Source of the DNA: a virus | Lineage: Duplodnaviria; Caudoviricetes | IMG/VR virus record: IMGVR_UViG_3300013121_000024 | Location: 86,380-150,379 of that record | Reading direction: 5' to 3' (one strand) | DNA: 64,000 nucleotides | Shown: positions 1-60,138 of the stretch, one piece after another | Position numbering within the stretch: position 1 is the first letter of the stretch | How the letters are laid out: every line of letters starts with the position of its first letter | The notes under the pieces: generated by a model | Seen by the model: the letters and a program-made list of their open reading frames with translations, nothing else | Databases searched by the model: none | What the model was told of the DNA's origin: nothing | Made by a program: the position numbers and the translations under genes

Positions 1-294
1 ATCCACCACGGTGAAAGTGCAGTTGTACAAGGCGCTATTGTCTCGGACGGCAGCTTTACCGGAGACCATCATAGCACGCATGGAAGGCATTATCTCTAAG
101 TTTAAAATTGCATCCTGCAATTCACTCATTAGTGAGTCGGGTATTGTATACCCATGTTTTTCTTTTACGGATTCAGATACAAAATTCAAGTATCTATTAA
201 CTGTTTCTGGCCAGTGTTCACGCCGTTTCTTATCCGGAAGAAATCTTGCATATTTGGATTTATGTATATACTGTTGATAGGAATCCATTGTCAT
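1..294 (-). CDS. nrdJ: Class II (adenosylcobalamin-dependent) ribonucleotide reductase, N-terminal part (runs off the window)
   Basis: Hand translation: MTMDSYQQYIHKSKYARFLPDKKRREHWPETVNRY...EIMPSMRAMMVSG...DNSALYNCTF, typical of the phage monomeric NrdJ N-terminus; not in the ORF track because it is truncated. Confidence 0.85.
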   Translation of the reverse strand, partial: MTMDSYQQYIHKSKYARFLPDKKRREHWPETVNRYLNFVSESVKEKHGYTIPDSLMSELQDAILNLEIMPSMRAMMVSGKAAVRDNSALYNCTFTVVD

Positions 295-303
295 CCGTGT
301 CGT

Positions 304-6949: not shown

Positions 6950-8923
6950 TTATTTCTTATTTTTAGATGGTATATAGCCCAAAATTCCATACAACTTACT
7001 TTCAGTCATGGACACCTTTGGTAGAGTTATACCTCTTTTTGGTTTTCCTTCTGGAATTTTCTTGCCGGACTCTACATGATCTAAAGACTTTTGACTGAAT
7101 TTTTGATTCCTCAAGAATTCTTGTGCCTTTTGTCTATCAGATGGATTATATTTTGTTCTCAGGGCGGATATAACTGGCTTGGGCAACCTTAATAGATCAT
7201 CCAACGGTGTCCTCTCGGAATCACCGGAAGTGACCTTTTTAGGAACTTCCTTCTCTTTCGGAGGATTCTTCTTTTCTGCCTTTTTAGCATTCGAAGCGGC
7301 CGCAATGGCCTTAATCAGCTCGGCGCGTTCTTTCTTGTTCTTGGTGCCGGCCAATTTTTTCTTAAGGCCTGATAAACTGGCCTCGTTCAATTCACTAGAA
7401 ATTCTGTCGGCCGCCGTATTTTCCATTAATACACCAGCACTCTTTTTTACTCCATCGGCCCATGGGTCTTTAATGGCCGGTTTATTTTCCGATACCACTT
7501 TCCTCACGGCGGCCAATAGACTCTCAGAAAACTGACCTTTAAGTCTGTGGTCTATCATTTTAGGCAATTCTCCTTTTCCTCTATTTAGTGTTCTGATCAA
7601 TCCTTCTGTTAATTCACTAGAATTCAGTGATTCTTTTATCCTTCTTTTATGATAAGGAGCTGGAGAAGTATCACGGGCCCGCCTGTTTTTATTTGCTTCT
7701 CCTTGAATTAATGTTTTGATTTTTTCCATAGTACCAATAGCATCTCTTTTTAGTCCTGTTCGGATATCATCAAATGCTGGACCTGCCCATGGTCCTTCAC
7801 GTCGTTTAATGGCATCCACAATTGGTGTTAGTATTGCATCACGGTCGCCTTTCAAGCCAGTACCAACATCGTCAGCGGCTTTGGATAACCATGTACGACT
7901 TCTCCTCTTAATGGAGTCCTTTACGGGATTAACCACGTTCTTCAAGTCTTTCTTGAGACCATAGGATATATCATCGACTACTGAATTTTCGGTCAATCCA
8001 CCCAAGCCCTTTTTCTCAAGATAAGCGGCGAATTTCGGATCCTTTTTCCTTATATTAAGGTAACGCTTATTACTCCAGTCCGTATTATCTATGGCAGCGA
8101 AAGCGGCTGCCATGGCCGGGCTAGGGGGCCTGAGTTTTGGGTGCTTAGGTTCAGGACCTCTCTTTTTGAGGGCGTCTAATTGGGCTTTCTTTTTTGAATC
8201 ATCCGGGTCTAATTCTAAATCACCAATCTTGTTTTCGGTTACGTGTGATTCGCCTAATGTGTACCAAGATTTCGAGTCTATTTCTTTATTGCCCAAATAG
8301 TGTTTTCCGCCTTTGGTACGTACATTGACACCTAGTGAATTCAATCGGGATTTAGTGGTAGTAGTTGGCCAACCGGCCATGGAAATAGACACTTTACCTT
8401 TAACATTCTTTGCAATAAGGTTTCCATGAAGTCTCATTTCTGTTCCGTGTGGAGTAACCACAACATGTGTATTCTTGTTTTTGTATGGCCGGTGGTTCAT
8501 AAAACTATGAGCGGCCGCAGAGGAGATTTTTCTCTCCTCATTAAGATCGATTACTTCTTCCGAGAGAGATTCTTGTACGGCCCCGAATGCTTTGCCATTA
8601 GCTTCTTCCTCGGCCTTTTTGGCCGCGGCCTTCTCGATCCTTTTTTTGTTGGCGGCAAGTCTGGCTGGTGTTTGAAACTGTATCCTATTTGTCACCTTAA
8701 TTTCTTCTTTTCTACGGTCTGGATCATTAGGATCAAATACAATTTTTTTACTTTTGCCTGTAACCTTATCCTCTTGTAATGAGGATTCATTGATTTCCTG
8801 TACTAATAAAGTTTCCGGAGTTTCCAAAATCGTTGGAATTTTCCGTTTACTAGGCATCCGCAGTTCTTTACCTGAAAGGACTTCCAGTGCAGTATGTTCT
8901 AATGATCGGTACTTCTTTGTCAT
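6950..8923 (-). CDS. Large basic protein, putative internal head (poly)protein
   Basis: 657 aa, Lys-rich, many hydrophobic-x-E motifs, three internal DD(I/V)xxGLK repeats. Confidence 0.55.
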   Translation of the reverse strand: MTKKYRSLEHTALEVLSGKELRMPSKRKIPTILETPETLLVQEINESSLQEDKVTGKSKKIVFDPNDPDRRKEEIKVTNRIQFQTPARLAANKKRIEKAAAKKAEEEANGKAFGAVQESLSEEVIDLNEERKISSAAAHSFMNHRPYKNKNTHVVVTPHGTEMRLHGNLIAKNVKGKVSISMAGWPTTTTKSRLNSLGVNVRTKGGKHYLGNKEIDSKSWYTLGESHVTENKIGDLELDPDDSKKKAQLDALKKRGPEPKHPKLRPPSPAMAAAFAAIDNTDWSNKRYLNIRKKDPKFAAYLEKKGLGGLTENSVVDDISYGLKKDLKNVVNPVKDSIKRRSRTWLSKAADDVGTGLKGDRDAILTPIVDAIKRREGPWAGPAFDDIRTGLKRDAIGTMEKIKTLIQGEANKNRRARDTSPAPYHKRRIKESLNSSELTEGLIRTLNRGKGELPKMIDHRLKGQFSESLLAAVRKVVSENKPAIKDPWADGVKKSAGVLMENTAADRISSELNEASLSGLKKKLAGTKNKKERAELIKAIAAASNAKKAEKKNPPKEKEVPKKVTSGDSERTPLDDLLRLPKPVISALRTKYNPSDRQKAQEFLRNQKFSQKSLDHVESGKKIPEGKPKRGITLPKVSMTESKLYGILGYIPSKNKK

Positions 8924-8940
8924 TTTTGTTCCAGTCGTTA

Positions 8941-10518
8941 TTATACAGTTGTGGTCGATGATCGTGTTACTATACCAGAGACAGTGGGTTTAGTATTAGC
9001 CGATGGAAGTGGAGGAATTTTGGCATCTTTAGCCTTTAAGGTAGTAGTGCCGACAGGTTTTTGTCGGCTTTTACTTATCTTAGAGGTTTTACTGACCACC
9101 CCACCATCTTTTTCTCCACCAGTTTTTCCGGCCGCCTTATCTACAAATGTGGCCGATTCCTTAAAAAATCTACCTTTCAATATTCCTTTCAATCTATTTA
9201 GTATTCCAGTTTTTTCTGTTGCTACTTTTGCAACATATTTAGAAGCCGGAGGTTCAGTTTGTACTTTGGGCAATTCTACATTTGCGATATTTATGGTTTT
9301 CAACGGCCTGAGTGGATATGACTTGATTTCAGCCTCATTTCTTACCACCGGCTCTATCACTCCAGCATCCAATTGTGTACGAACGTCATCTAATTGCATT
9401 TTAGAAATCATTTCTAGGTCGTACAGATTGTTGTATTGTTTCATCTGTTTGGCAATCTGGACCTTACGTATAATCTCTTTGAATTCTTTCTCCTTAGCAG
9501 CTTCTCCGGATGCTTCGCGGCGAGCTTCCGCCCTCTGTTGGGCCTTCAATTTTGACAGTTCCTTTAACTTTGGACTTACCTCAGCTTGTACCTCGGCCGT
9601 GGCAACCTCTGCGGCCTTCTGTTCCAGTCTTTTTGCTAATCTGTCAAATTTATCTCTAGTTCTTTTTTCGGACTTTTCCCTGGCGGCCGATTTAATAGTA
9701 GAGGCCAGCTTTTTAGGATCCGTACCTCCTACTATTCCGGCAATTGTTTCTAGATTGTCCGGGTGGATAGTACCAGATCCGGATAATATACTTTGTAATT
9801 GGCCAAGAGCTTCGCTTCCTCCCCTTTGAATAGGAACAATGGCTACCGGGGTTCCCATTTTCTTGGATACTTTGGTAATTTTCTTTTTTTGTTTTTCTAG
9901 TTTGTTCTTAGCTCTTAATTTTTCTTGGTCTGATTTTAATTTCAAACGTCTTTTAAGTTCAGCTCTCGCCCTTCGGCCCAAATCATCCTTTCGAACAGCT
10001 AACTTTCCTAGACTTTTGTTACTAGTTTTACTGGTAATCTTGTAATCAGAAGGAAAAGCCATTTCATTTAAGATGCCGGTTGCTGATAAGACTTTGCTTG
10101 GTGTATTTTCTAATTTCATGGTATTCATTATACTCCTGATTGTCCTTCTCCCACCTGGAATTTCACCATACCTCTTGCCTTCTATTTCTTGCGATACTGC
10201 CGAAATAGTAGCATTCTTTTTCCACCATTTTGGAAGTATTTTTTTATACACCAGGCCCTTCAACCCCCGGCTTCTCTTAGTCCATTGTCTACGAATTTCA
10301 CTCTCGATATCACTAGGGTTGGCATCTTCGCCATCTTGCATGATACCGCTATTGAAAGCCCAGAAAGCATCTTCTCCACCTTTAGACTCCGTTTTAACTT
10401 TTGATGGTGTACCATCTTTAAGTGTTGGATTTAAGTCTACCAAAGGATTTTTTGATTTATTGGTGGCTTGAATTTTCTTGTTTTTATTATTGCGCATTTT
10501 TCTTTCCATATGAAACAA
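8941..10518 (-). CDS. Large basic coiled-coil protein, putative internal head protein
   Basis: 525 aa Lys/Ala-rich ORF in the late block. Confidence 0.55.
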   Translation of the reverse strand: MFHMERKMRNNKNKKIQATNKSKNPLVDLNPTLKDGTPSKVKTESKGGEDAFWAFNSGIMQDGEDANPSDIESEIRRQWTKRSRGLKGLVYKKILPKWWKKNATISAVSQEIEGKRYGEIPGGRRTIRSIMNTMKLENTPSKVLSATGILNEMAFPSDYKITSKTSNKSLGKLAVRKDDLGRRARAELKRRLKLKSDQEKLRAKNKLEKQKKKITKVSKKMGTPVAIVPIQRGGSEALGQLQSILSGSGTIHPDNLETIAGIVGGTDPKKLASTIKSAAREKSEKRTRDKFDRLAKRLEQKAAEVATAEVQAEVSPKLKELSKLKAQQRAEARREASGEAAKEKEFKEIIRKVQIAKQMKQYNNLYDLEMISKMQLDDVRTQLDAGVIEPVVRNEAEIKSYPLRPLKTINIANVELPKVQTEPPASKYVAKVATEKTGILNRLKGILKGRFFKESATFVDKAAGKTGGEKDGGVVSKTSKISKSRQKPVGTTTLKAKDAKIPPLPSANTKPTVSGIVTRSSTTTV

Positions 10519-14447: not shown

Positions 14448-15875
14448 TTATTTGAATTCCGAGAATATTGATTTATTGGATTGTATGGATTGTGTAAATT
14501 TTGGCTTTATGGGTATGGCTTGGGTTTCCTGGTGTGTTGTTAATTCTGTTTGGATGGTGTTTTTCTGTGCTGATATTTCTGGACTGTATAACCTCATGTG
14601 TGGACGATCAAACCCTATTATGAACTTTTTCTTTTTCTCTTTGTCATCATATCGATTTTTCATTTGTTTAAAGAGTATTTGACCAAGGGAATCCAACTCC
14701 TCGGTTCTAATTACTGCTAAGAACAGATCAAAAACGGCCGGAGCTCCCCAGGAATCTGAAGTTTTATCCATATCAAAATCGGTATCAGCAAATCCAGACC
14801 TGTTTACCTGTGTGCTGGTAACAATAGCTGTATTACTTTCAATGGCCAATCCTCTCAATTCTTCGGCCATGGTCTTGACATATATATAAGTATTTATTCC
14901 ACCGCCCATTTTAATCCTACTTGAGGCGCAAATATTCAGGTAATCCACATATATTACATCAGGAATAAAGTTTTTTTTATGTTTCAACTCACCCAGGAGG
15001 TATCTGAAATTAGCAGTCGAGGCGCCGCCGGTAGGATATTCCTTAATTATTAATCGTCCGGTAATCTTTTTCTGTAAAGCCTGCATTTTTCGTTCATAGG
15101 TTTCTTTGGGTAGTTTGGTCAAGTCGTCCAAAGAAACTCCAAGTAAGTTAGCATCTATACGCTCCGCGATTTTCTCCTCGGACATTTCCATGGTAATATA
15201 AAGCACATTATAACCTAAGGAAACATGGGATGCCGCAAGGTGACACTTAACCGCGGTTTTTCCTACTCCCACCGGCGCCATGAAACAGTTAAGAGTTTTC
15301 CGTAGGAGACCTCCCTTGGTAATCTGGTTAAGCTCCTCAATATCAAAAGGTATGTGAATATCGGTACTATTATAAAAATTAAACCGTTCGGTATAATCGG
15401 ACATGTAGTCATGTCCGATTTTAGAGTCAAAGGACACACTAAGAGCATCAGAAAACAATTGTGGCAAACTACCAGCCAAATGGGTTTTATCTTTGCCTTC
15501 TAAAATTGTTATTCCTGATCTAATAGCATTGTGCAGCGCATTTTCTTGACAAAAAGACTCCGTAGTGGAATATAACCAATCCTTATCTGTCTCCAAGTCT
15601 GGAGCAAGAGTCCCAATAAGTTCCTGTGCCTTTAGGAATGTATCTTCAGATAAACCACTGGTATTGCCCAGATCAATATACAATGCTTCTCTGGTAGGCC
15701 TTGTATTATACCTAGACACAAAATCATGTATTAGTTTATATACAATCTTATGTGTCTTACTTTGGAAATACTCCTCCTTGAGAAAAGGAAATACTTTCCT
15801 CATGTAGTCTTCGTTATAAAGGTAGTGAGAAAGTATTACATTATCAAAATTCAAAATGGTAAACTCCGTTTTCAA
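14448..15875 (-). CDS. gp41: Replicative DNA helicase (T4 gp41)
   Basis: APVGVGKT, YITMEMSEEKIAERIDAN, IKEYPT, VDYLNIC, QMKNRY. Confidence 0.95.
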   Translation of the reverse strand: MKTEFTILNFDNVILSHYLYNEDYMRKVFPFLKEEYFQSKTHKIVYKLIHDFVSRYNTRPTREALYIDLGNTSGLSEDTFLKAQELIGTLAPDLETDKDWLYSTTESFCQENALHNAIRSGITILEGKDKTHLAGSLPQLFSDALSVSFDSKIGHDYMSDYTERFNFYNSTDIHIPFDIEELNQITKGGLLRKTLNCFMAPVGVGKTAVKCHLAASHVSLGYNVLYITMEMSEEKIAERIDANLLGVSLDDLTKLPKETYERKMQALQKKITGRLIIKEYPTGGASTANFRYLLGELKHKKNFIPDVIYVDYLNICASSRIKMGGGINTYIYVKTMAEELRGLAIESNTAIVTSTQVNRSGFADTDFDMDKTSDSWGAPAVFDLFLAVIRTEELDSLGQILFKQMKNRYDDKEKKKKFIIGFDRPHMRLYSPEISAQKNTIQTELTTHQETQAIPIKPKFTQSIQSNKSIFSEFK

Positions 15876-16396
15876 TCGTTGGTTTCTGTGTCATCCCCGT
15901 CTAGACTTTTTTCTCTTTGGTCACCATAAGAATATTCAATATGGACTGCATTATTGATAGTCTCCAGAATTTCTGGAGTATAGTACTTCTCCGGATTCCT
16001 GTCAATGTCTTTAGCAAAGGCCTTGGTACCATCTGGAAATTCATACCGGTTACCTACCTTTTTCACAATTCCGTGTCTTTCTGCAATTTCCAATAGACCC
16101 CAGAATTTATCAATACCTGTATCATATGACAGTCGTAGCTCAACTTCTTTATTCTCACGTGACAATCTCGACTTTATCAACCGCACTTTTAGTATATTGC
16201 CGATTACTTCCTTTCCGTCACCCTTATCCTTTTTCTTGGAAAGGAATAGAATGTAATCGGCCGAGTAGCGGAGCCCGCCGCCACCTGAATTATGTGAAAT
16301 CACTCCATTCGAAAGGATGTAATGCTCGGCAAATCCCACCGATATATCAAACACTTCTGTTGGTTCATTTATCTTCTTTATAGATACAATTCTCAT
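15872..16396 (-). CDS. uvsX: UvsX C-terminal fragment fused behind a split intein C-half
   Basis: 36 aa IntC (MRIVSIKK...VFDISV...NGVISHN) then SGGGGLRYSA, the RecA/UvsX GGxxLxYxA motif. Confidence 0.9.
   Translation of the reverse strand: MRIVSIKKINEPTEVFDISVGFAEHYILSNGVISHNSGGGGLRYSADYILFLSKKKDKGDGKEVIGNILKVRLIKSRLSRENKEVELRLSYDTGIDKFWGLLEIAERHGIVKKVGNRYEFPDGTKAFAKDIDRNPEKYYTPEILETINNAVHIEYSYGDQREKSLDGDDTETND
16289..16396 (-). mobile_element. Split intein C-half (UvsX)
   Basis: Blocks F/G, ends HN followed by Ser. Confidence 0.9.
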
Positions 16397-17093
16397 TTTC
16401 CGTTTTCTCCACTATGGTGATTTTTTGTATACCATATTTGTCCCAAAGGTGCCATTTATCTTTTCGAATTAATGAAGCACCTAATGATTTGCTCTTGCCT
16501 AAATGAGTACCCAATTCCAATCTATTTAAGAAATTTATGCTTTGGCCATCCATAAACTCTACGAATATTGGTATACTCCGTTTGTTTCTTAACATCTTAC
16601 GTGTTTTCTCGGAATGTGTTTTTCCGAAAAATGGATTAGATGTACCAGGCTGGCCGCATTTTTTTCTCAGAACTTCTATTGTTTCAGGTGTATGTTTTCT
16701 TCCGAAAAAGGGGTTCTTTTCACCCTTTAGACCTTTCCCAAAAGCCGGATTATTTTGGCCTGATATGTCTCTTGAAAAGGCCTTCTTGAATAATTCATAG
16801 CTCCTGGAAAAATATCTTGAACGGTGACTTGAATTGGATACCCGCATTTTATGAAAGGCAAAAATCATTTTCCTCTTGTTTAATGGAGTGGTTACCATCT
16901 TCACTAGACATAAATGCAAAATATAATGTTCGCGTGCGGTTAACTGTACCAAATTATGCATCGAGTTTGTTCCACCCAAGCTTTTTGGTATAATGTGGTG
17001 TGTTTCAGAATAATCTTCTTTAGGTAGTATCCTACATTTACCACGCTCAACAAGTCGCCAATAGATTCGTGAATATTTGTTCTCTAAAAACAT
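16365..17093 (-). CDS. Free-standing HNH homing endonuclease with NUMOD3-type repeats, between the uvsX halves
   Basis: ETHHIIPKSLGGTN...NLVQLTAREHYILH; NPFFGRKHTPET and NPFFGKTHSEKT; AAGGA RBS before ATG 17093. Confidence 0.88.
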   Translation of the reverse strand: MFLENKYSRIYWRLVERGKCRILPKEDYSETHHIIPKSLGGTNSMHNLVQLTAREHYILHLCLVKMVTTPLNKRKMIFAFHKMRVSNSSHRSRYFSRSYELFKKAFSRDISGQNNPAFGKGLKGEKNPFFGRKHTPETIEVLRKKCGQPGTSNPFFGKTHSEKTRKMLRNKRSIPIFVEFMDGQSINFLNRLELGTHLGKSKSLGASLIRKDKWHLWDKYGIQKITIVEKTENENCIYKEDK

Positions 17094-17382
17094 CAGTTTT
17101 TCCTTGTATATCACACACACTGATGTTATTTATATTTTGAATCTCCTCCATCAGGTCGAACACCGTCCTCCACTTACCGTCTACCAAAAATTTATGTTCT
17201 CCTGTCGCCTTAATTTTTGTTCCATCTTCAAATTCAATTTCAAAAACCTCGGTTGACGTAAAAGAATGCACATTTGTTATTTTACTGTCTCCGAAAAGCG
17301 TTTTTACCATATCACCGACATCTAGGTCTTGTATATTTCTATGTCCTTCTGGTGTAGATACCTTTGTGTCGGCTGCCAGACA
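17047..17382 (-). mobile_element. Split intein N-half (UvsX)
   Basis: Block A CLAADT, block B TxxH (TGEH), stop codon with no HN. Confidence 0.9.
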
Positions 17383-18051
17383 CATCTCTTTAGTGGGAAC
17401 ATACGAACCCGTAACATCGTATGTATGGTTGGTCACGATCATAGGGATCCGAGCCTTAGCCAGCTTCAGCCTGAGAACACGGAACGCTCCTCTGAGTAAC
17501 TGAGGCTTGGTCATATCCCTCTTTTCGGTACCTTCGGTAATATCACCAAGTTCCTTTGAGGAAGAAAGCATTCCAAGTGAGTCCAGAACAAACAGGAATT
17601 CTGGCCGGTCCTTTTTTTCCATCAAGGAATCAATATATTTTACCGCCTTGTGTCTGAATTCTTCAATGGTGGACGGCTCAGAAACGATTACCCTGGAGAC
17701 ATCAATACCTCTGGAAGCCATCATTTCTTTGGTAACGGCCGCCTCTGTGTCAAAATAAATCACACCTGCACTAGTATTCTTTTCCAGAAATGTTTTCACA
17801 ATACTCAGTGCTAGGTAAGTCTTGCCGGTACTTGTTTCGCCGGCCATGGCGATGATTTTGTTGTTTGGAAATCCATTGTAAATGTCGGCTGAAATTAAAG
17901 CGTTCAATGCATAACACCCTGTATCCGTATATCCATCAAACTCGGCCGCGCTGATTCCATCAGCGGCCAGTGTTAAAAACTCATCTTCCTGTTCTTTCAC
18001 AAATTCATTGAAAAAATTATTCGATTTTATAACCGTACTTGATTTTGCCAT
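17047..18051 (-). CDS. uvsX: UvsX (RecA-like) N-terminal fragment fused to a split intein N-half
   Basis: GETSTGKT, YFDTEAA, LDSLGML, VTNHTY then KEM|CLAADTKV...IKATGEHKF. Confidence 0.92.
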   Translation of the reverse strand: MAKSSTVIKSNNFFNEFVKEQEDEFLTLAADGISAAEFDGYTDTGCYALNALISADIYNGFPNNKIIAMAGETSTGKTYLALSIVKTFLEKNTSAGVIYFDTEAAVTKEMMASRGIDVSRVIVSEPSTIEEFRHKAVKYIDSLMEKKDRPEFLFVLDSLGMLSSSKELGDITEGTEKRDMTKPQLLRGAFRVLRLKLAKARIPMIVTNHTYDVTGSYVPTKEMCLAADTKVSTPEGHRNIQDLDVGDMVKTLFGDSKITNVHSFTSTEVFEIEFEDGTKIKATGEHKFLVDGKWRTVFDLMEEIQNINNISVCDIQGKTDVFREQIFTNLLATC

Positions 18052-18089
18052 ATATTCTTTCTCCAAATAGCACACTGTTAACAGTTAGT

Positions 18090-18118
18090 ACTGTACAATA
18101 TTGTCTCGCAGGTGTCAA
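18090..18118 (-). promoter_or_regulatory. Sigma70-like promoter for uvsX (TTGACA-17-TACAGT)
   Basis: Consensus match just upstream of uvsX. Confidence 0.7.
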
Positions 18119-18119
18119 T

Positions 18120-18149
18120 AAAAAAGGCGGACCCGTTTCCAGGTCCGCC
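18120..18149 (-). terminator. Rho-independent terminator
   Basis: GGCGGACC/GGTCCGCC stem plus T run on the minus strand. Confidence 0.8.
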
Positions 18150-18154
18150 AATTT

Positions 18155-19204
18155 TCATTTCTTCTTTCGTCTCTTCTTTTTTGTTGCCGGTGGAATCATT
18201 GTGAAAACTTGTCCTCCGGCCCTCTTGGCCGCTTTGATCTTTCTAAGGTCTAACAGGTCTTTTTTCGAGATTCTTACGGAATTACCCGATTTTACCGGAT
18301 ATACCGTTTTTTGTTTCCTAGGCGGAAACTTATCTCTCGATCCAAGAGGTCGACCTACACCACGCTTTGCCATTTTTTGTGGCATGTCGGACAGTGGTAT
18401 AGGAGGTATAGGTGTTGTTTCCACTGGTGGATTCACAACACTGACCTTTTCTGGTTCTTTATTGTTTGGCACAATTGCACCCGACCTGGAGATCACATTG
18501 TTGTATGCAATAAGCATCAACACTGCGAACGGATCGAAAACAAGCACCAATACAACAATAAGGATTCGGACCGATTTTTCCAGTGTATCCTCCGAAGGAT
18601 TATCCTGGAAAAGTTGTGTTATGTATTTGAGTGGTCCTACTTCCGCTTCCAGTTTGCGCTGCATTGTTTTGGCGCGTATTAGACTTTCCTGGAGCGGTTC
18701 CAGTTCCTTTTCAAGAGTCCTCTTTCGCGATTCTAAATCCTTTCTATCGGACTTAGTAACACTAAGGGCCTCTTTTTCTCTTCCCTTCTTTAAGAGTCCG
18801 GTTACCACACTGGATTTTTCATCCAATTGGTTATTGATGCGGATCAATTCCTCTTTCTTTGGGTTGATTTTTGCTTTTAACAGCTCTACGGTTTCTGTGC
18901 CTTCTGACCCAATTTTGACCTGTTGGTCAATATGTGCCTTAGACAAATATCCGAACACACCCAAAGAGGTTATTCCCATAAGGAAAATAACCATGGCTAC
19001 GATGGGCATTTTAAGATGCCACCGAAGCACCGGCCAACGACGATTCAACCATGATACGGCTACAACCTTAGCTGTTTCCAGCAAGGTGCCCATGATAACC
19101 ACTGGCCAGTAAGAGGCGGGGAAGATGGTGGTTAGTCCTATTATGGAAAATAGGCCTGATACCACCGACAATGATAATGCTACCACGAGTAGCAGATTAT
19201 CCAT
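18155..19204 (-). CDS. Conserved phage membrane protein with coiled coil
   Basis: Three N-terminal TM helices, FGYLSKAH, EVGPLKYI, VFDPFAVLM. Confidence 0.7.
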   Translation of the reverse strand: MDNLLLVVALSLSVVSGLFSIIGLTTIFPASYWPVVIMGTLLETAKVVAVSWLNRRWPVLRWHLKMPIVAMVIFLMGITSLGVFGYLSKAHIDQQVKIGSEGTETVELLKAKINPKKEELIRINNQLDEKSSVVTGLLKKGREKEALSVTKSDRKDLESRKRTLEKELEPLQESLIRAKTMQRKLEAEVGPLKYITQLFQDNPSEDTLEKSVRILIVVLVLVFDPFAVLMLIAYNNVISRSGAIVPNNKEPEKVSVVNPPVETTPIPPIPLSDMPQKMAKRGVGRPLGSRDKFPPRKQKTVYPVKSGNSVRISKKDLLDLRKIKAAKRAGGQVFTMIPPATKKKRRKKK

Positions 19205-57767: not shown

Positions 57768-59531
57768 TTAAGGCCAATCATTAATGGGCTCGATGTTCCA
57801 GTCTAACCATGTTTTTTGAACAGGAGGTTTATCATCATCGTCTTTATCTTCGTTTGGTCCTGTATCTATGATTCCGAATGGCACTAGATCGTTCATTAAT
57901 TCTTCGTCCGACCGATCTCTCAATCTGTCCAAGGTATTTATTTCCGTATATTCCTTAAAAAAGGACTGGTTTGTCAACCAACCAAACAATACCAATCCCA
58001 TAACTATATCATCATTATTTCCAGGTTCTGCCTCATAAGATTGTTTATTTTTGGAAAATACAGAAAATTCATGAATGGTGTCAAAATCGTTAACAATAAA
58101 TTGGTTCTGTTCGATCAATAGTTTGATCATGGAACAGCCTACATTTTTCACACCCTTTGTTGTTCTTATTCCTAAATCACTAGTTCTTCCAGAAAACCCG
58201 GATGAAATCTGTTTTCCTATGCGACCATGGTTCTCAGTAAATAACATATCAGTATACTCATAATCATAGTATACAACAGAAGCTACTTGTTCTCCAATGT
58301 CATTCGATTCTATCAAAAGTAGTGCATTATTATACAGCTTACAGAAACGGTGTATTATTTCAGCATATTCGATAGGTGTGATTAAATTGCTTTTATATAC
58401 CATTACCTGGTCATATGGCATTTTTGTCACATCAATTATTGAAAATGCAGAATAATCAAGGCCTTTTCCGCGAGATACGTCAGCCACACAAGCGTATTTG
58501 TGTCCACTAACAGGAAGCTTGTACTGTTTAATTCCTTCTTTTTGGAGTATAGGTATCTGGTCTACCAGTTCTTTGAGTTTCCAACCTGCAATAAGTGTTC
58601 CTGAAGAACCTAGGTATTGATTTTCAAACTCAGCCGCAAATTTATCATTATCAAAGTTCATGGCTGCCAGTGTTTCTTGTTTCCAGGCCTCATCTCTGCC
58701 TGGAACCTCCCACCATGGAACTGAAATCAGGTGATATCCATTTTTGTGATTTCTTGCATTGGTAGTTATTTTATAAAAGTGATTCAGTCCATTTACCGTG
58801 GATACAAGTATGACTTTGGTGGACTGTCCAGATGAAATGGTAGGAAAGACTCCGGCAAAGAAGTCGTCGAAGTTTTCAACGAATGCGGCCTCATCTACCA
58901 GTAGTAGGTTTACAGAAAATCCACGAATTGTACTACTACCTGTCGCAGCCGCCATGACTTTAGAACCATTTTCAAGCTCAAACGAGCCTTTGTTCCATTC
59001 TACCACACCCTGTTGTAACCATTTTGGTAGATGCTCATACGCCAACTGGATTCTACTGAGAATTTCCCTCGCTGTTTCACCTTTGTTGGCCAGAATAGCC
59101 ACGTGTTTGTGCTCGTGAAATATGATATACCATAGTACAAGAACGGTTATGGCCGTGGTATTGTGTGATAGTATATCATTGGTATACAATCGGTGTGTTG
59201 GAGAATCCACCGAGACATCAAACATGTTAGAATATCGTTTTGTTGAATAAACCGAAATTACCCGTTCGGGTCCTGACTTGGTAATAATACTGGTTTCACC
59301 AGGAATACAATCCTTGACGAATATTTGGTCCATAGATTCGGTGAATATAATGTGTGTGTCCGCACAAATCAGTGATTTTCCTGTTTCTGTTACTATCACC
59401 CATTCTTGGTATTCCACGGTTTTGTGTATGGCTGAAATGTCATGCCAACCGGTATCTGTTTCTATTTCCCAATCAGAAATATCAATGGAATCAACAAATT
59501 TTCTGGTTATGCTGTCAGAAAGTTCAGGCAT
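57768..59531 (-). CDS. gp17: Terminase large subunit C-terminal fragment behind a split intein C-half
   Basis: 124 aa IntC ending ILSHN|TT, then LANK, DEAAF, DVSRGKGLDYS, NDDIVM. Confidence 0.93.
   Translation of the reverse strand: MPELSDSITRKFVDSIDISDWEIETDTGWHDISAIHKTVEYQEWVIVTETGKSLICADTHIIFTESMDQIFVKDCIPGETSIITKSGPERVISVYSTKRYSNMFDVSVDSPTHRLYTNDILSHNTTAITVLVLWYIIFHEHKHVAILANKGETAREILSRIQLAYEHLPKWLQQGVVEWNKGSFELENGSKVMAAATGSSTIRGFSVNLLLVDEAAFVENFDDFFAGVFPTISSGQSTKVILVSTVNGLNHFYKITTNARNHKNGYHLISVPWWEVPGRDEAWKQETLAAMNFDNDKFAAEFENQYLGSSGTLIAGWKLKELVDQIPILQKEGIKQYKLPVSGHKYACVADVSRGKGLDYSAFSIIDVTKMPYDQVMVYKSNLITPIEYAEIIHRFCKLYNNALLLIESNDIGEQVASVVYYDYEYTDMLFTENHGRIGKQISSGFSGRTSDLGIRTTKGVKNVGCSMIKLLIEQNQFIVNDFDTIHEFSVFSKNKQSYEAEPGNNDDIVMGLVLFGWLTNQSFFKEYTEINTLDRLRDRSDEELMNDLVPFGIIDTGPNEDKDDDDKPPVQKTWLDWNIEPINDWP
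59160..59531 (-). mobile_element. Atypically split intein, long C-half (TerL)
   Basis: Contains block B (ICADTH) and blocks F/G. Confidence 0.88.
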
Positions 59532-59771
59532 TCTTGTATAACTCTTATAACTCTTTCTTTGTCGGATCGGTAATCACGTTCCCATATGACCAAGACTTTA
59601 AATCCCTTTCGTTCAGCAATGAGTTTCTTTTTTCTATCTTGTATCCATATATTTCTTGCTAATGTAATCGTAACCTTCTATTCCTGAATCATATTTGGAA
59701 AGCCTTTTTTGTTTTTGTTTTTCAAGTATCTTGGCTCTGTTTTCCAGATAACGATCGTTTTTGTAGGTCAT
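59507..59771 (-). pseudogene. Internally deleted Vsr/EDxHD-type homing endonuclease relic between the terL halves
   Basis: N-piece MTYKNDRYLENRAK...GIEGYDYI and, in another frame, C-piece NIWIQDRKKKLIAERKGFKVLVIWERDY...IQECLNFL. Confidence 0.7.
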
Positions 59772-60138
59772 AAAATTCTCCAATGGTTGTCTTGTGTATT
59801 TCACCCGTGGTTTTGTTCCGTATATTTATACGAGTATGATATTCAAGGCACTTTCCTGCTTGTCTGGAACATTCCGCGACCGTAAACCTGTGTTCCTTCG
59901 CAGTGTTAACTATTTCCTTTTGGTATGGGTAAAGGTTAATGGTAATCAGTCCCTTATCCACATTCACAATTTTCATATGTTTTTCGGCAAAATAAATGGG
60001 GTCTTGTGAACACTTGATGTATTCCTCGACCATCTCCGGAGTCCAATCTATTTGTACTCCACACTTTTTAAGCTGAGAGTTACCCAGGTAGCCTTTGAAG
60101 TTTTTGTAATTTATGTTGTGTTGATTATGGTTGGACAT
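59722..60138 (-). CDS. gp17: Terminase large subunit N-terminal fragment plus 42-aa split intein N-half
   Basis: YLGN..LK, KCSQDPIYF, LYPYQ, SRQAGK|CLEYHT. Confidence 0.92.
   Translation of the reverse strand: MSNHNQHNINYKNFKGYLGNSQLKKCGVQIDWTPEMVEEYIKCSQDPIYFAEKHMKIVNVDKGLITINLYPYQKEIVNTAKEHRFTVAECSRQAGKCLEYHTRINIRNKTTGEIHKTTIGEFYDLQKRSLSGKQSQDT

Follow-up and report, generated by a model that had tools for sequence, protein, structure and literature searches.

A fractured uvsX gene with two intein halves and a free-standing HNH endonuclease gene in an uncultured T4-like phage

An uncultured T4-like phage, from activated sludge, has its recombinase gene uvsX broken into two parts, each joined to one half of an intein, with a gene for an HNH-type endonuclease between them. 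The phage is represented by the 150,379-bp IMG/VR record IMGVR_UViG_3300013121_000024 (CheckV completeness 83%), and the window analyzed here is the whole 64,000-nucleotide (nt) stretch at positions 86380-150379 of that record. Among the listed runs holding at least half of this stretch, every organism-labelled one bears the label of an activated-sludge metagenome, and none of the runs listed for the stretch is of RNA. Very likely, a mobile cassette consisting of an N-terminal intein half (IntN), the HNH gene, and a C-terminal intein half (IntC) splits the sole uvsX of the phage, the intact enzyme being restored by protein trans-splicing and the homing nuclease being under late control.

The locus lies on the minus strand, as do all of its features given below, and consists of three consecutive, overlapping open reading frames (ORFs) in three different frames. 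ORF1 (17047-18051, 334 amino acids (aa)) encodes the N-terminal part of UvsX followed by IntN, ORF2 (16365-17093, 242 aa) encodes the HNH/NUMOD3 endonuclease, and ORF3 (15872-16396, 174 aa) encodes IntC followed by the remainder of UvsX. ORF1 and ORF2 overlap by 47 nt and ORF2 and ORF3 by 32 nt, and ahead of each start, at the usual spacing, stands a motif resembling a ribosome-binding site (RBS): GGAG, AAGGA (17101-17105), and GGAG (16407-16410), respectively. A sequence-only reading of this DNA had proposed the three ORFs in their three frames, the overlaps, the two downstream RBS-like sites, and the intein ends KEM↓CLAADT and TGEH for an IntN of 111 aa and HN↓SGGGGLRY for an IntC of 36 aa (the arrow marks the intein border). 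All of these were found where it had placed them, the intein ends by translation.

Two UvsX halves and a split intein

The N-extein (17383-18051) comprises UvsX residues 1-223 (...YVPTKEM), begins 9 nt after its GGAG, contains the Walker A motif GETSTGKT, and ends in ...NHTYDVTGSYVPTKEM. The C-extein (15872-16288, 138 aa and the stop codon) begins at Ser+1 with SGGGGLRYSAD and supplies the C-terminal third of the protein. ORF1 matches positions 35-187 of the Pfam RecA model and ORF3 positions 202-262, and the two ORFs match the UvsX family phrog_97 with E values of 3e-54 and 2e-16. When compared by BLASTP with the uninterrupted 336-aa UvsX of cyanophage S-CAM8, the exteins are colinear and meet at ...YVPMKEM↓GGGSGLKY with 0 gap and 0 overlap, a seamless fit to an intein-free UvsX. 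In most related uvsX loci, counted over the best 80 from IMG/VR, the match to ORF3 begins at residue 37 or 38, which are the first extein residues. A solved UvsX (9GBG, E = 3e-35) and E. coli RecA align to ORF3 from about residue 35-37, at the motif GG..L(K/R)(F/Y). In RecA this motif comes after the DNA-binding loop L2. The alignments place the cassette at the C-terminal edge of the predicted L2 loop of UvsX, between Met223 and a Ser. The predicted ligation junction, KEMSGGGGL, is found uninterrupted in the UvsX of the metagenomic protein P0024, whose own intein is eight residues upstream. Throughout the 150-kb record uvsX is the only RecA-like gene, and it is present as a single copy.

IntN (17050-17382, with the stop codon at 17047-17049) is 111 aa long with a net charge of -8. 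Its Cys1 (CLAADT) is residue 224 of ORF1 and stands directly after ...PTKEM, exactly where uninterrupted UvsX continues. The block B motif TxxH is present as TGEH; the His is invariant in 16/16 aligned N-halves, and most of these have Thr or Ser three residues before it. IntC (16289-16396, 36 aa), whose ATG follows its GGAG by 10 nt, contains blocks F and G and ends in ...VISHN; this terminus, ...HYILSNGVISHN, directly precedes Ser+1, and its H35 and N36 are nearly invariant among aligned C-halves. On the Pfam model Intein_splicing (PF14890) IntN covers positions 36-86 and IntC positions 122-155, and a match to Hint_2 spans 1-33. Among solved structures, IntN comes nearest to the gp41-1 split intein (6QAZ, E = 1.4e-6), which is listed among the ultra-fast split inteins (PMC13014065). 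The division into 111 and 36 aa falls at the canonical site, at the endonuclease-insertion loop, and a homologous intein occurs unsplit inside UvsX in the metagenomic protein P0018 (483 aa). Judged by its residues, the pair constitutes a class-1 split intein with a complete motif set and a canonical split site.

Intact UvsX probably needs to be joined after translation, and trans-splicing is the predicted means. The two pieces might instead assemble non-covalently, via the intein halves or the RecA fold, and work without ligation as Aeh1 NrdA does. Genes split by MobE-type HNH endonucleases can function without splicing, as far as this is relayed from Friedrich et al. (2007) in PMC2677866 and PMC2988022, and the endonuclease of the window belongs to the same family as Aeh1 mobE. 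Such an assembly is nevertheless unlikely. Cys1, TxxH, the terminal His-Asn, and Ser+1 are retained in relatives just 40-57% identical, though association alone needs none of them, and the edge of the L2 DNA-binding loop would have to carry 147 additional residues.

The three-frame break is not an assembly artefact, since contigs from four studies are free of indels and a diverged strain keeps all three ORFs open. The Logan contigs, used here in place of reads, come from four runs of these four studies and contain 0 inserted and 0 deleted letters over 15800-18150, including the two points, ~17090 and ~16390, at which the sequence-only reading had recognized that indels might hide. In run X9, from an independent 2025 study, a single contig (15800-17442) runs through both ORF junctions, differing by 23 substitutions and without a gap. 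This strain is ~2% diverged from the window, and none of its substitutions, once introduced, closes any of the three ORFs. The IntN/HNH junction is also bridged in run X11 and the HNH/IntC junction in run X13, both without differences. The X9 changes are mostly in third positions, being synonymous in 6/9 cases in ORF1, 4/9 in ORF2, and 5/8 in ORF3, and the two located where IntN and HNH overlap affect third positions of the HNH frame, in which they are silent.

These contigs bear on the alternative that the locus is really one contiguous, HNH-containing intein, divided by frameshifts or by programmed recoding at ~17090 and ~16390. Contiguous inteins with HNH domains do exist (PMC2677866), and in two related loci, L210 (614-2275) and L169 (oriented 7820-9565), IntN and the HNH ORF share a frame with one stop codon between them; in the window, unlike these, the two overlap in different frames. 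The likelihood of this alternative is nonetheless next to negligible, given the indel-free contigs, which include that of the diverged strain across both junctions. The HNH gene moreover begins with the start typical of its family, MFLENKYS, and an RBS, a promoter box, and a hairpin (described below) belong to it alone. Frame relations vary over eight loci, yet there are always three ORFs, and split C-half proteins begin at the same Met in independent assemblies.

Removal of an intervening sequence from the RNA, for example as a group I intron carrying the HNH gene, would also reconcile the two halves, and the recA genes of Bacillus and of phage 0305phi8-36 are known to contain endonuclease-bearing group I introns (PMC2677866). 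Its probability is negligible, however: an Rfam search up to E = 1 found no intron or other family inside 15872-18051, the sole match in the searched stretch being a sub-threshold L20 leader at 18113-18216, and the boundaries fall on intein blocks A and G with single-residue precision. The architecture first proposed for this locus, a split intein with a free-standing HNH gene, is upheld by the complete motifs, the canonical split, the homology to gp41-1, the lack of an intron match in that search, the indel-free contigs, and the single-copy uvsX, and the view that intact UvsX would depend on trans-splicing agrees with the same results.

A separate observation concerns the X9 assembly, which breaks on both sides of a conserved 73-nt uvsX segment (17413-17485, encoding ...MIVTNHTYDV). 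Short X9 contigs at 17413 and 17485 share just 30-73 nt with uvsX and then run into unlike sequence that, read in frame, does not continue UvsX. Because of these contigs, several uvsX variants probably coexist in the X9 sludge sample.

The HNH endonuclease gene and its proposed control region

The ORF2 product matches NUMOD3 (E = 1.6e-14, 54 bits, two repeats) and phrog_655, annotated 'homing endonuclease' (E = 7e-42). Its HNH motif, HHIIPKSLGG...N...EH, scores 20.7 bits with Pfam HNH (cutoff 21.4) and aligns to the HNH of IscB, and the whole protein is 31% identical to T6 MobE across 88% of its length. By these matches it is a homing endonuclease of the MobE-like HNH kind, free-standing and equipped with NUMOD3 repeats. 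The nearest whole-protein relatives (L092-L096) are free-standing genes in contexts unrelated to uvsX. The conserved N-terminus of the family, MFLENKYS, is shared with such free-standing copies, which begin with it, and this helps to fix the true start codon of ORF2. A degenerate DNA pattern built on the conserved start was used to recover loci with the same HNH type from IMG/VR. Seven further loci (L165, L166, L118, L182, L210, L216, and L169) have the order UvsX-N/IntN, HNH, IntC/UvsX-C in the same orientation, so the HNH-type fractured uvsX forms a small family.

The end of IntN overlaps this gene. Compared with relatives such as P0014, IntN has a tail of ~20 extra residues, which P0009-P0013 share in conserved form. 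Its final 15 codons (DVFREQIF...) are the MFLENKYS start read one base earlier, and the RBS, a hairpin arm, and a promoter box lie further upstream; the odd tail (the last ~30 codons) therefore reads as the control region and start of the endonuclease gene, seen in the IntN frame. An idea that arose from a MAFFT alignment, that the tail is a degenerate duplicated IntC, was rejected, as a nine-sequence IntC hidden Markov model scores the tails at no more than 2.3 bits (E at least 0.13 against 13 sequences).

The promoter box is TATAAATA (17127-17134), which equals the consensus of T4 late promoters and has just 9 occurrences over both strands of the window. It adjoins the 5' arm of a predicted RNA hairpin (17085-17132) in which the 5' arm (17119-17127) pairs with a 3' arm (17089-17097) that includes the HNH AUG (17091-17093), while the RBS AAGGA is in the loop region. 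The IntN frame runs through the box, the 5' arm, the nuclease RBS, and the first HNH codons. Conservation of the hairpin was judged from minimum free energy folds of each sequence, anchored on the AUG. In 7/8 cassette loci an upstream CAU or UAU pairs with the AUG, and where these loci vary, at -1, -2, and -4, the partner bases vary as well so that pairing is kept. The AUG lies within a helix of at least 9 pairs in 22 of 45 distinct HNH-family starts; the controls gave 12 of 99 for starts of genes in this genome and 24 of 135 for upstream regions after shuffling. The late box occurs at -60 to -25 in 12/45 members of the HNH family and nowhere else within 200 nt either side, and L165, L166, and L118 carry CTAAAT(A/G) at its position.

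Comparable arrangements are known for I-TevI, segB, and Aeh1 mobE, in which translation from the long transcripts of the early phase is blocked by a hairpin and the start is freed by a late promoter within that hairpin (PMC2988022). In the window the start codon of the nuclease would likewise be buried in the hairpin on long transcripts. Since TATAAATA adjoins the 5' arm, transcripts initiated there would lack most of that arm, and the nuclease is thus expected to be made only late.

Upstream of the locus, a TTGACA-17-TACAGT sequence (18090-18118) resembles a sigma-70 promoter by its consensus match, with 10/12 matching positions, and an intrinsic terminator-like hairpin (18126-18149; 10 pairs, 8 of them G-C, then a T run) appears to end the preceding transcription unit. 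No minus-strand terminator was found downstream of the locus before 14751. Because of this and of the promoter-like site, one transcript probably spans the three ORFs and the gp41-like helicase gene downstream. The best sigma-70-like match of the region is another, TTGACA-17-TATACT (11/12), at 15977-16005 on the minus strand, inside the UvsX C-extein; it lies ~100 nt ahead of the start of the gp41-like helicase and may be an internal promoter for it.

A possible course of events can be outlined as follows. The UvsX-N-IntN and IntC-UvsX-C proteins would be translated from their own RBSs, probably off one early or middle polycistronic transcript. The intein halves would associate and rebuild a class-1 HINT domain, and ligation of the exteins by trans-splicing would yield a 361-aa UvsX with the junction ...PTKEM-SGGGGLRY. 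The separate nuclease is presumed to nick or cut those uvsX alleles of co-infecting phages that lack the intein, and their repair would copy the whole cassette in.

Several points count against this account. Splicing activity, the timing of expression, and the target of the nuclease are deduced from sequence, and the exclusion of indels rests on assembled contigs rather than raw reads. Each intein half by itself scores below the Pfam gathering cutoff, as is expected of half-domains; the two PF14890 half-matches (25.1 and 22.6 bits) add up to 47.7 bits, against a whole-domain cutoff of 35.8. The net charge of IntC is -1 rather than positive, with +3 in its first strand. AlphaFold2 modeled the contiguous relative P0018 from a 17-row alignment with low confidence (mean predicted local distance difference test score of 53.6). 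For the window alone the energy z-score of the nuclease hairpin is unremarkable (-0.83), and the Fisher P values for hairpins in the HNH family, 4e-6 against gene starts and 1e-4 against shuffled regions, are overstated, the sequences being related.

Mobility, insertion sites, and relatives of the cassette

Comparison of close relatives reveals that the cassette and the gene it splits have separate histories. Between L165 and L166 there are 45 substitutions in the N-extein and 22 in the C-extein, but only 4 in the ~1085-nt cassette, which is ~17-fold less diverged than the flanking exteins; the extein differences stop two codons short of the intein borders. The pattern is reversed between the window and X9, in which all 23 differences fall in 16283-17395, a range that begins at codon 2 of the C-extein and ends five codons ahead of Cys1, and none in ~1180 nt of flanking extein DNA. 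The moving unit coincides with the intein borders to within a few codons. It is these opposite patterns that separate the two histories, and such independent divergence of cassette and uvsX points to recent transfer.

The same comparisons bear on whether uvsX is a decaying pseudogene, disrupted by the insertion, in a phage without a working recombinase. The record is ~83% complete, so that a second recombinase elsewhere is conceivable, and T4-like Acinetobacter phages without uvsX have been reported (PMC4177764). Decay is very unlikely even so. Both extein ORFs are intact and have their own RBS, and the sister strain has no change in ~1180 nt of their DNA. The exteins of L165 and L166, which have the same architecture, differ by 63 synonymous and 6 non-synonymous changes, and this synonymous excess indicates purifying selection on both UvsX halves, which argues against a dead gene. 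The arrangement also persists in many lineages, cultured phages included.

Split-intein insertions in UvsX occupy three points within eleven residues, each directly before Ser or Thr. The first, DV(I/T)G↓S, is found in L050 and P0024. The second, KEM↓S (read as KEM↓C and HN↓SGGGG), is that of the window and of P0010, P0013, P0022, P0023, P0025, and P0026. The third, KEMGGG↓S, or MTGG↓T in Straboviridae, is used by all other loci compared. The insertion in the window is thus three codons upstream of the common third site, within one intein lineage. In a tree of IntN sequences the three rows from the second site fall inside a clade (support 90/88) that includes rows from the third, the alignment being short and the inner branches without resolution. 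The N-exteins of P0011, at the third site, and L050, at the first, are identical at 206/207 aligned residues and yet carry different inteins, which indicates that the same uvsX background was invaded at two points.

L050 (1131-3265 of IMGVR_UViG_3300023184_002626) can also be described in its own right. Its uvsX is split at DVIG↓C ... VSHN↓SYVPTKKMGGG by a different split intein, with an HNH gene on the opposite strand (2029-2682); the P0011 intein is 11 residues downstream of this site.

A broader but tentative reading, which taken as a whole falls a little short of an even chance, is that the L2-loop edge of UvsX is a hot spot at which cassettes of split intein and endonuclease compete and shift. 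It would comprise one intein-HNH lineage that uses both KEM↓S and KEMGGG↓S, sites separated by three codons and each immediately followed by the Ser nucleophile; another intein, whose HNH gene is antisense, at a third point eight codons upstream, in a uvsX that is otherwise identical; and a phage that runs three split inteins (NrdJ, UvsX, and TerL) at once.

Fractured uvsX genes are also found in cultured phages. A tblastn search of GenBank phages with IntN identified the same layout in Proteus phage Pm5461, Salmonella phage SEA1, and Shewanella phage Thanatos-1, for which the regions were read. In Proteus phage PM2, Pseudomonas phage PspYZU05, and Klebsiella and Enterobacter phages the search gave the same IntN match within genes annotated as recombinase or DNA repair protein. 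The translated ORFs of Pm5461 and Thanatos-1 place the site at ...MTGG↓C ... HN↓TGVMYSAD, and each of the two phages has a homing endonuclease annotated in between, which for Thanatos-1 is given as Seg-like GIY-YIG. These Straboviridae genes resemble that of the window in host gene, loop, intein family (IntN ~38% identical), the endonuclease gene between the halves, and an IntC (35 aa) that likewise ends in HN; unlike it, they have the insertion three residues downstream and a short IntN without overlap into the endonuclease gene. Their annotation consists of two recombinase fragments and a homing endonuclease only (vB_PmiM_Pm5461, SEA1, Thanatos-1, and others), the halves of SEA1 being listed as uvsX_2 and uvsX_1. 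Further split N- and C-halves occur among the metagenomic proteins P0009-P0026 and in the IMG/VR loci L086-L089.

The seven IMG/VR loci with the same HNH type are closer in architecture. They share the order IntN-HNH-IntC and its orientation, with HNH proteins 38-43%, IntC 42-59%, and IntN 30-47% identical to those of the window (38-47% for IntN in 6/7), and in L165, L166, and L118 the IntN tail overlaps the HNH start as it does in the window. All seven, however, are inserted at ...GGG↓C and HN↓SG, whereas the window cassette is three codons upstream.

Fractured genes with a free-standing endonuclease gene were described by Dassa, London, Stoddard, Schueler-Furman, and Pietrokovski in 2009 as gp41-1 to gp41-9, NrdJ-1, IMPDH-1, and NrdA-2 (PMC2677866). 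The window locus has the same succession on one strand, N-extein with IntN, endonuclease ORF, and IntC with C-extein, and the same canonical split site. It differs in that uvsX is itself the host gene, UvsX in the earlier set being merely a neighbor of gp41. The endonucleases of that set are GIY-YIG or Vsr-like, which describes the set rather than defines it, and that of the window is HNH. Dassa et al. saw only the former two types and wrote that HNH endonucleases 'could fracture genes' (PMC2677866). With Aeh1 nrdA-mobE-nrdA and the MobE of T4 and T6 the window shares the endonuclease family and a hairpin over the translation start with a late promoter inside; the Aeh1 NrdA pieces have no intein and assemble non-covalently, whereas the window nuclease is between two intein halves. 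Some Lake Vida candidates among the VidaL split inteins (Neugebauer et al. in 2017 and Burton et al. in 2020) were reportedly named after UvsX, and the host protein family may be shared. VidaL is atypically split, with a 16-aa IntN (PMC13014065), unlike the canonical 111 and 36 aa of the window.

A literature search found no paper describing a split-intein uvsX. Fractured uvsX is common in databases and, as far as was found, apparently undescribed in print. The suggestion in the sequence-only reading that the pair might be new stands in part: a fractured uvsX as such is widespread, in GenBank Straboviridae as well as in metagenomes, and what is new is the allele, with its shifted site and HNH endonuclease. 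The uvsX of the window thus takes its place among known fractured genes and is not a first.

Other split genes and the meaning of the locus

The phage has other split genes. A second fractured gene, on the minus strand, occupies window positions 1-303 and the 3.6 kb before the window (82741-86682 of the record). It consists of an IntN 35% identical to that of uvsX, a NUMOD3-bearing ORF, and a long ORF that begins IntC-like. The gene for the large terminase subunit is also split (57768-60138, minus strand). A 138-aa ORF ends in the Walker A sequence ...SRQAGK and a short IntN (CLEYHT...), and, after a 190-nt gap without an endonuclease gene, a 587-aa ORF begins with an IntC of ~124 aa (...ILSHN↓TT) followed by a Terminase_6N domain. 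In sequence this looks like an atypical split intein of the AceL/GOS-TerL type. In another uncultured phage with a fractured uvsX (L088, 5217-6542), the ORF for the gp41 helicase next to it continues as an intein N-half (...NRDGY↓CLDLNT...), and so two neighboring replication genes carry inteins there.

The known picture of inteins is unchanged by the split uvsX locus. For annotation, it means that two 'recombinase' fragments flanking a homing endonuclease gene are one gene, and that odd C-terminal tails of IntN can be the late promoter, hairpin, and start codon of a nuclease gene in another frame. For the protein-splicing toolbox, it offers a canonically split Cys1/Ser+1 pair related to the very fast gp41-1, from a phage with two further split inteins, and because the pair shares its phage with these two, the orthogonality of the three is directly testable. 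If the broader reading is true, the NrdJ, UvsX, and TerL inteins would be a naturally orthogonal set, and the L2-loop edge would provide an example from nature of a split intein that shifts from one site to a neighboring one. For homing biology, the locus means that HNH endonucleases of the Mob type build fractured genes too, as Dassa et al. (2009) predicted, and that the nuclease moves together with the intein halves in a single unit, bounded by the intein borders to within a few codons.

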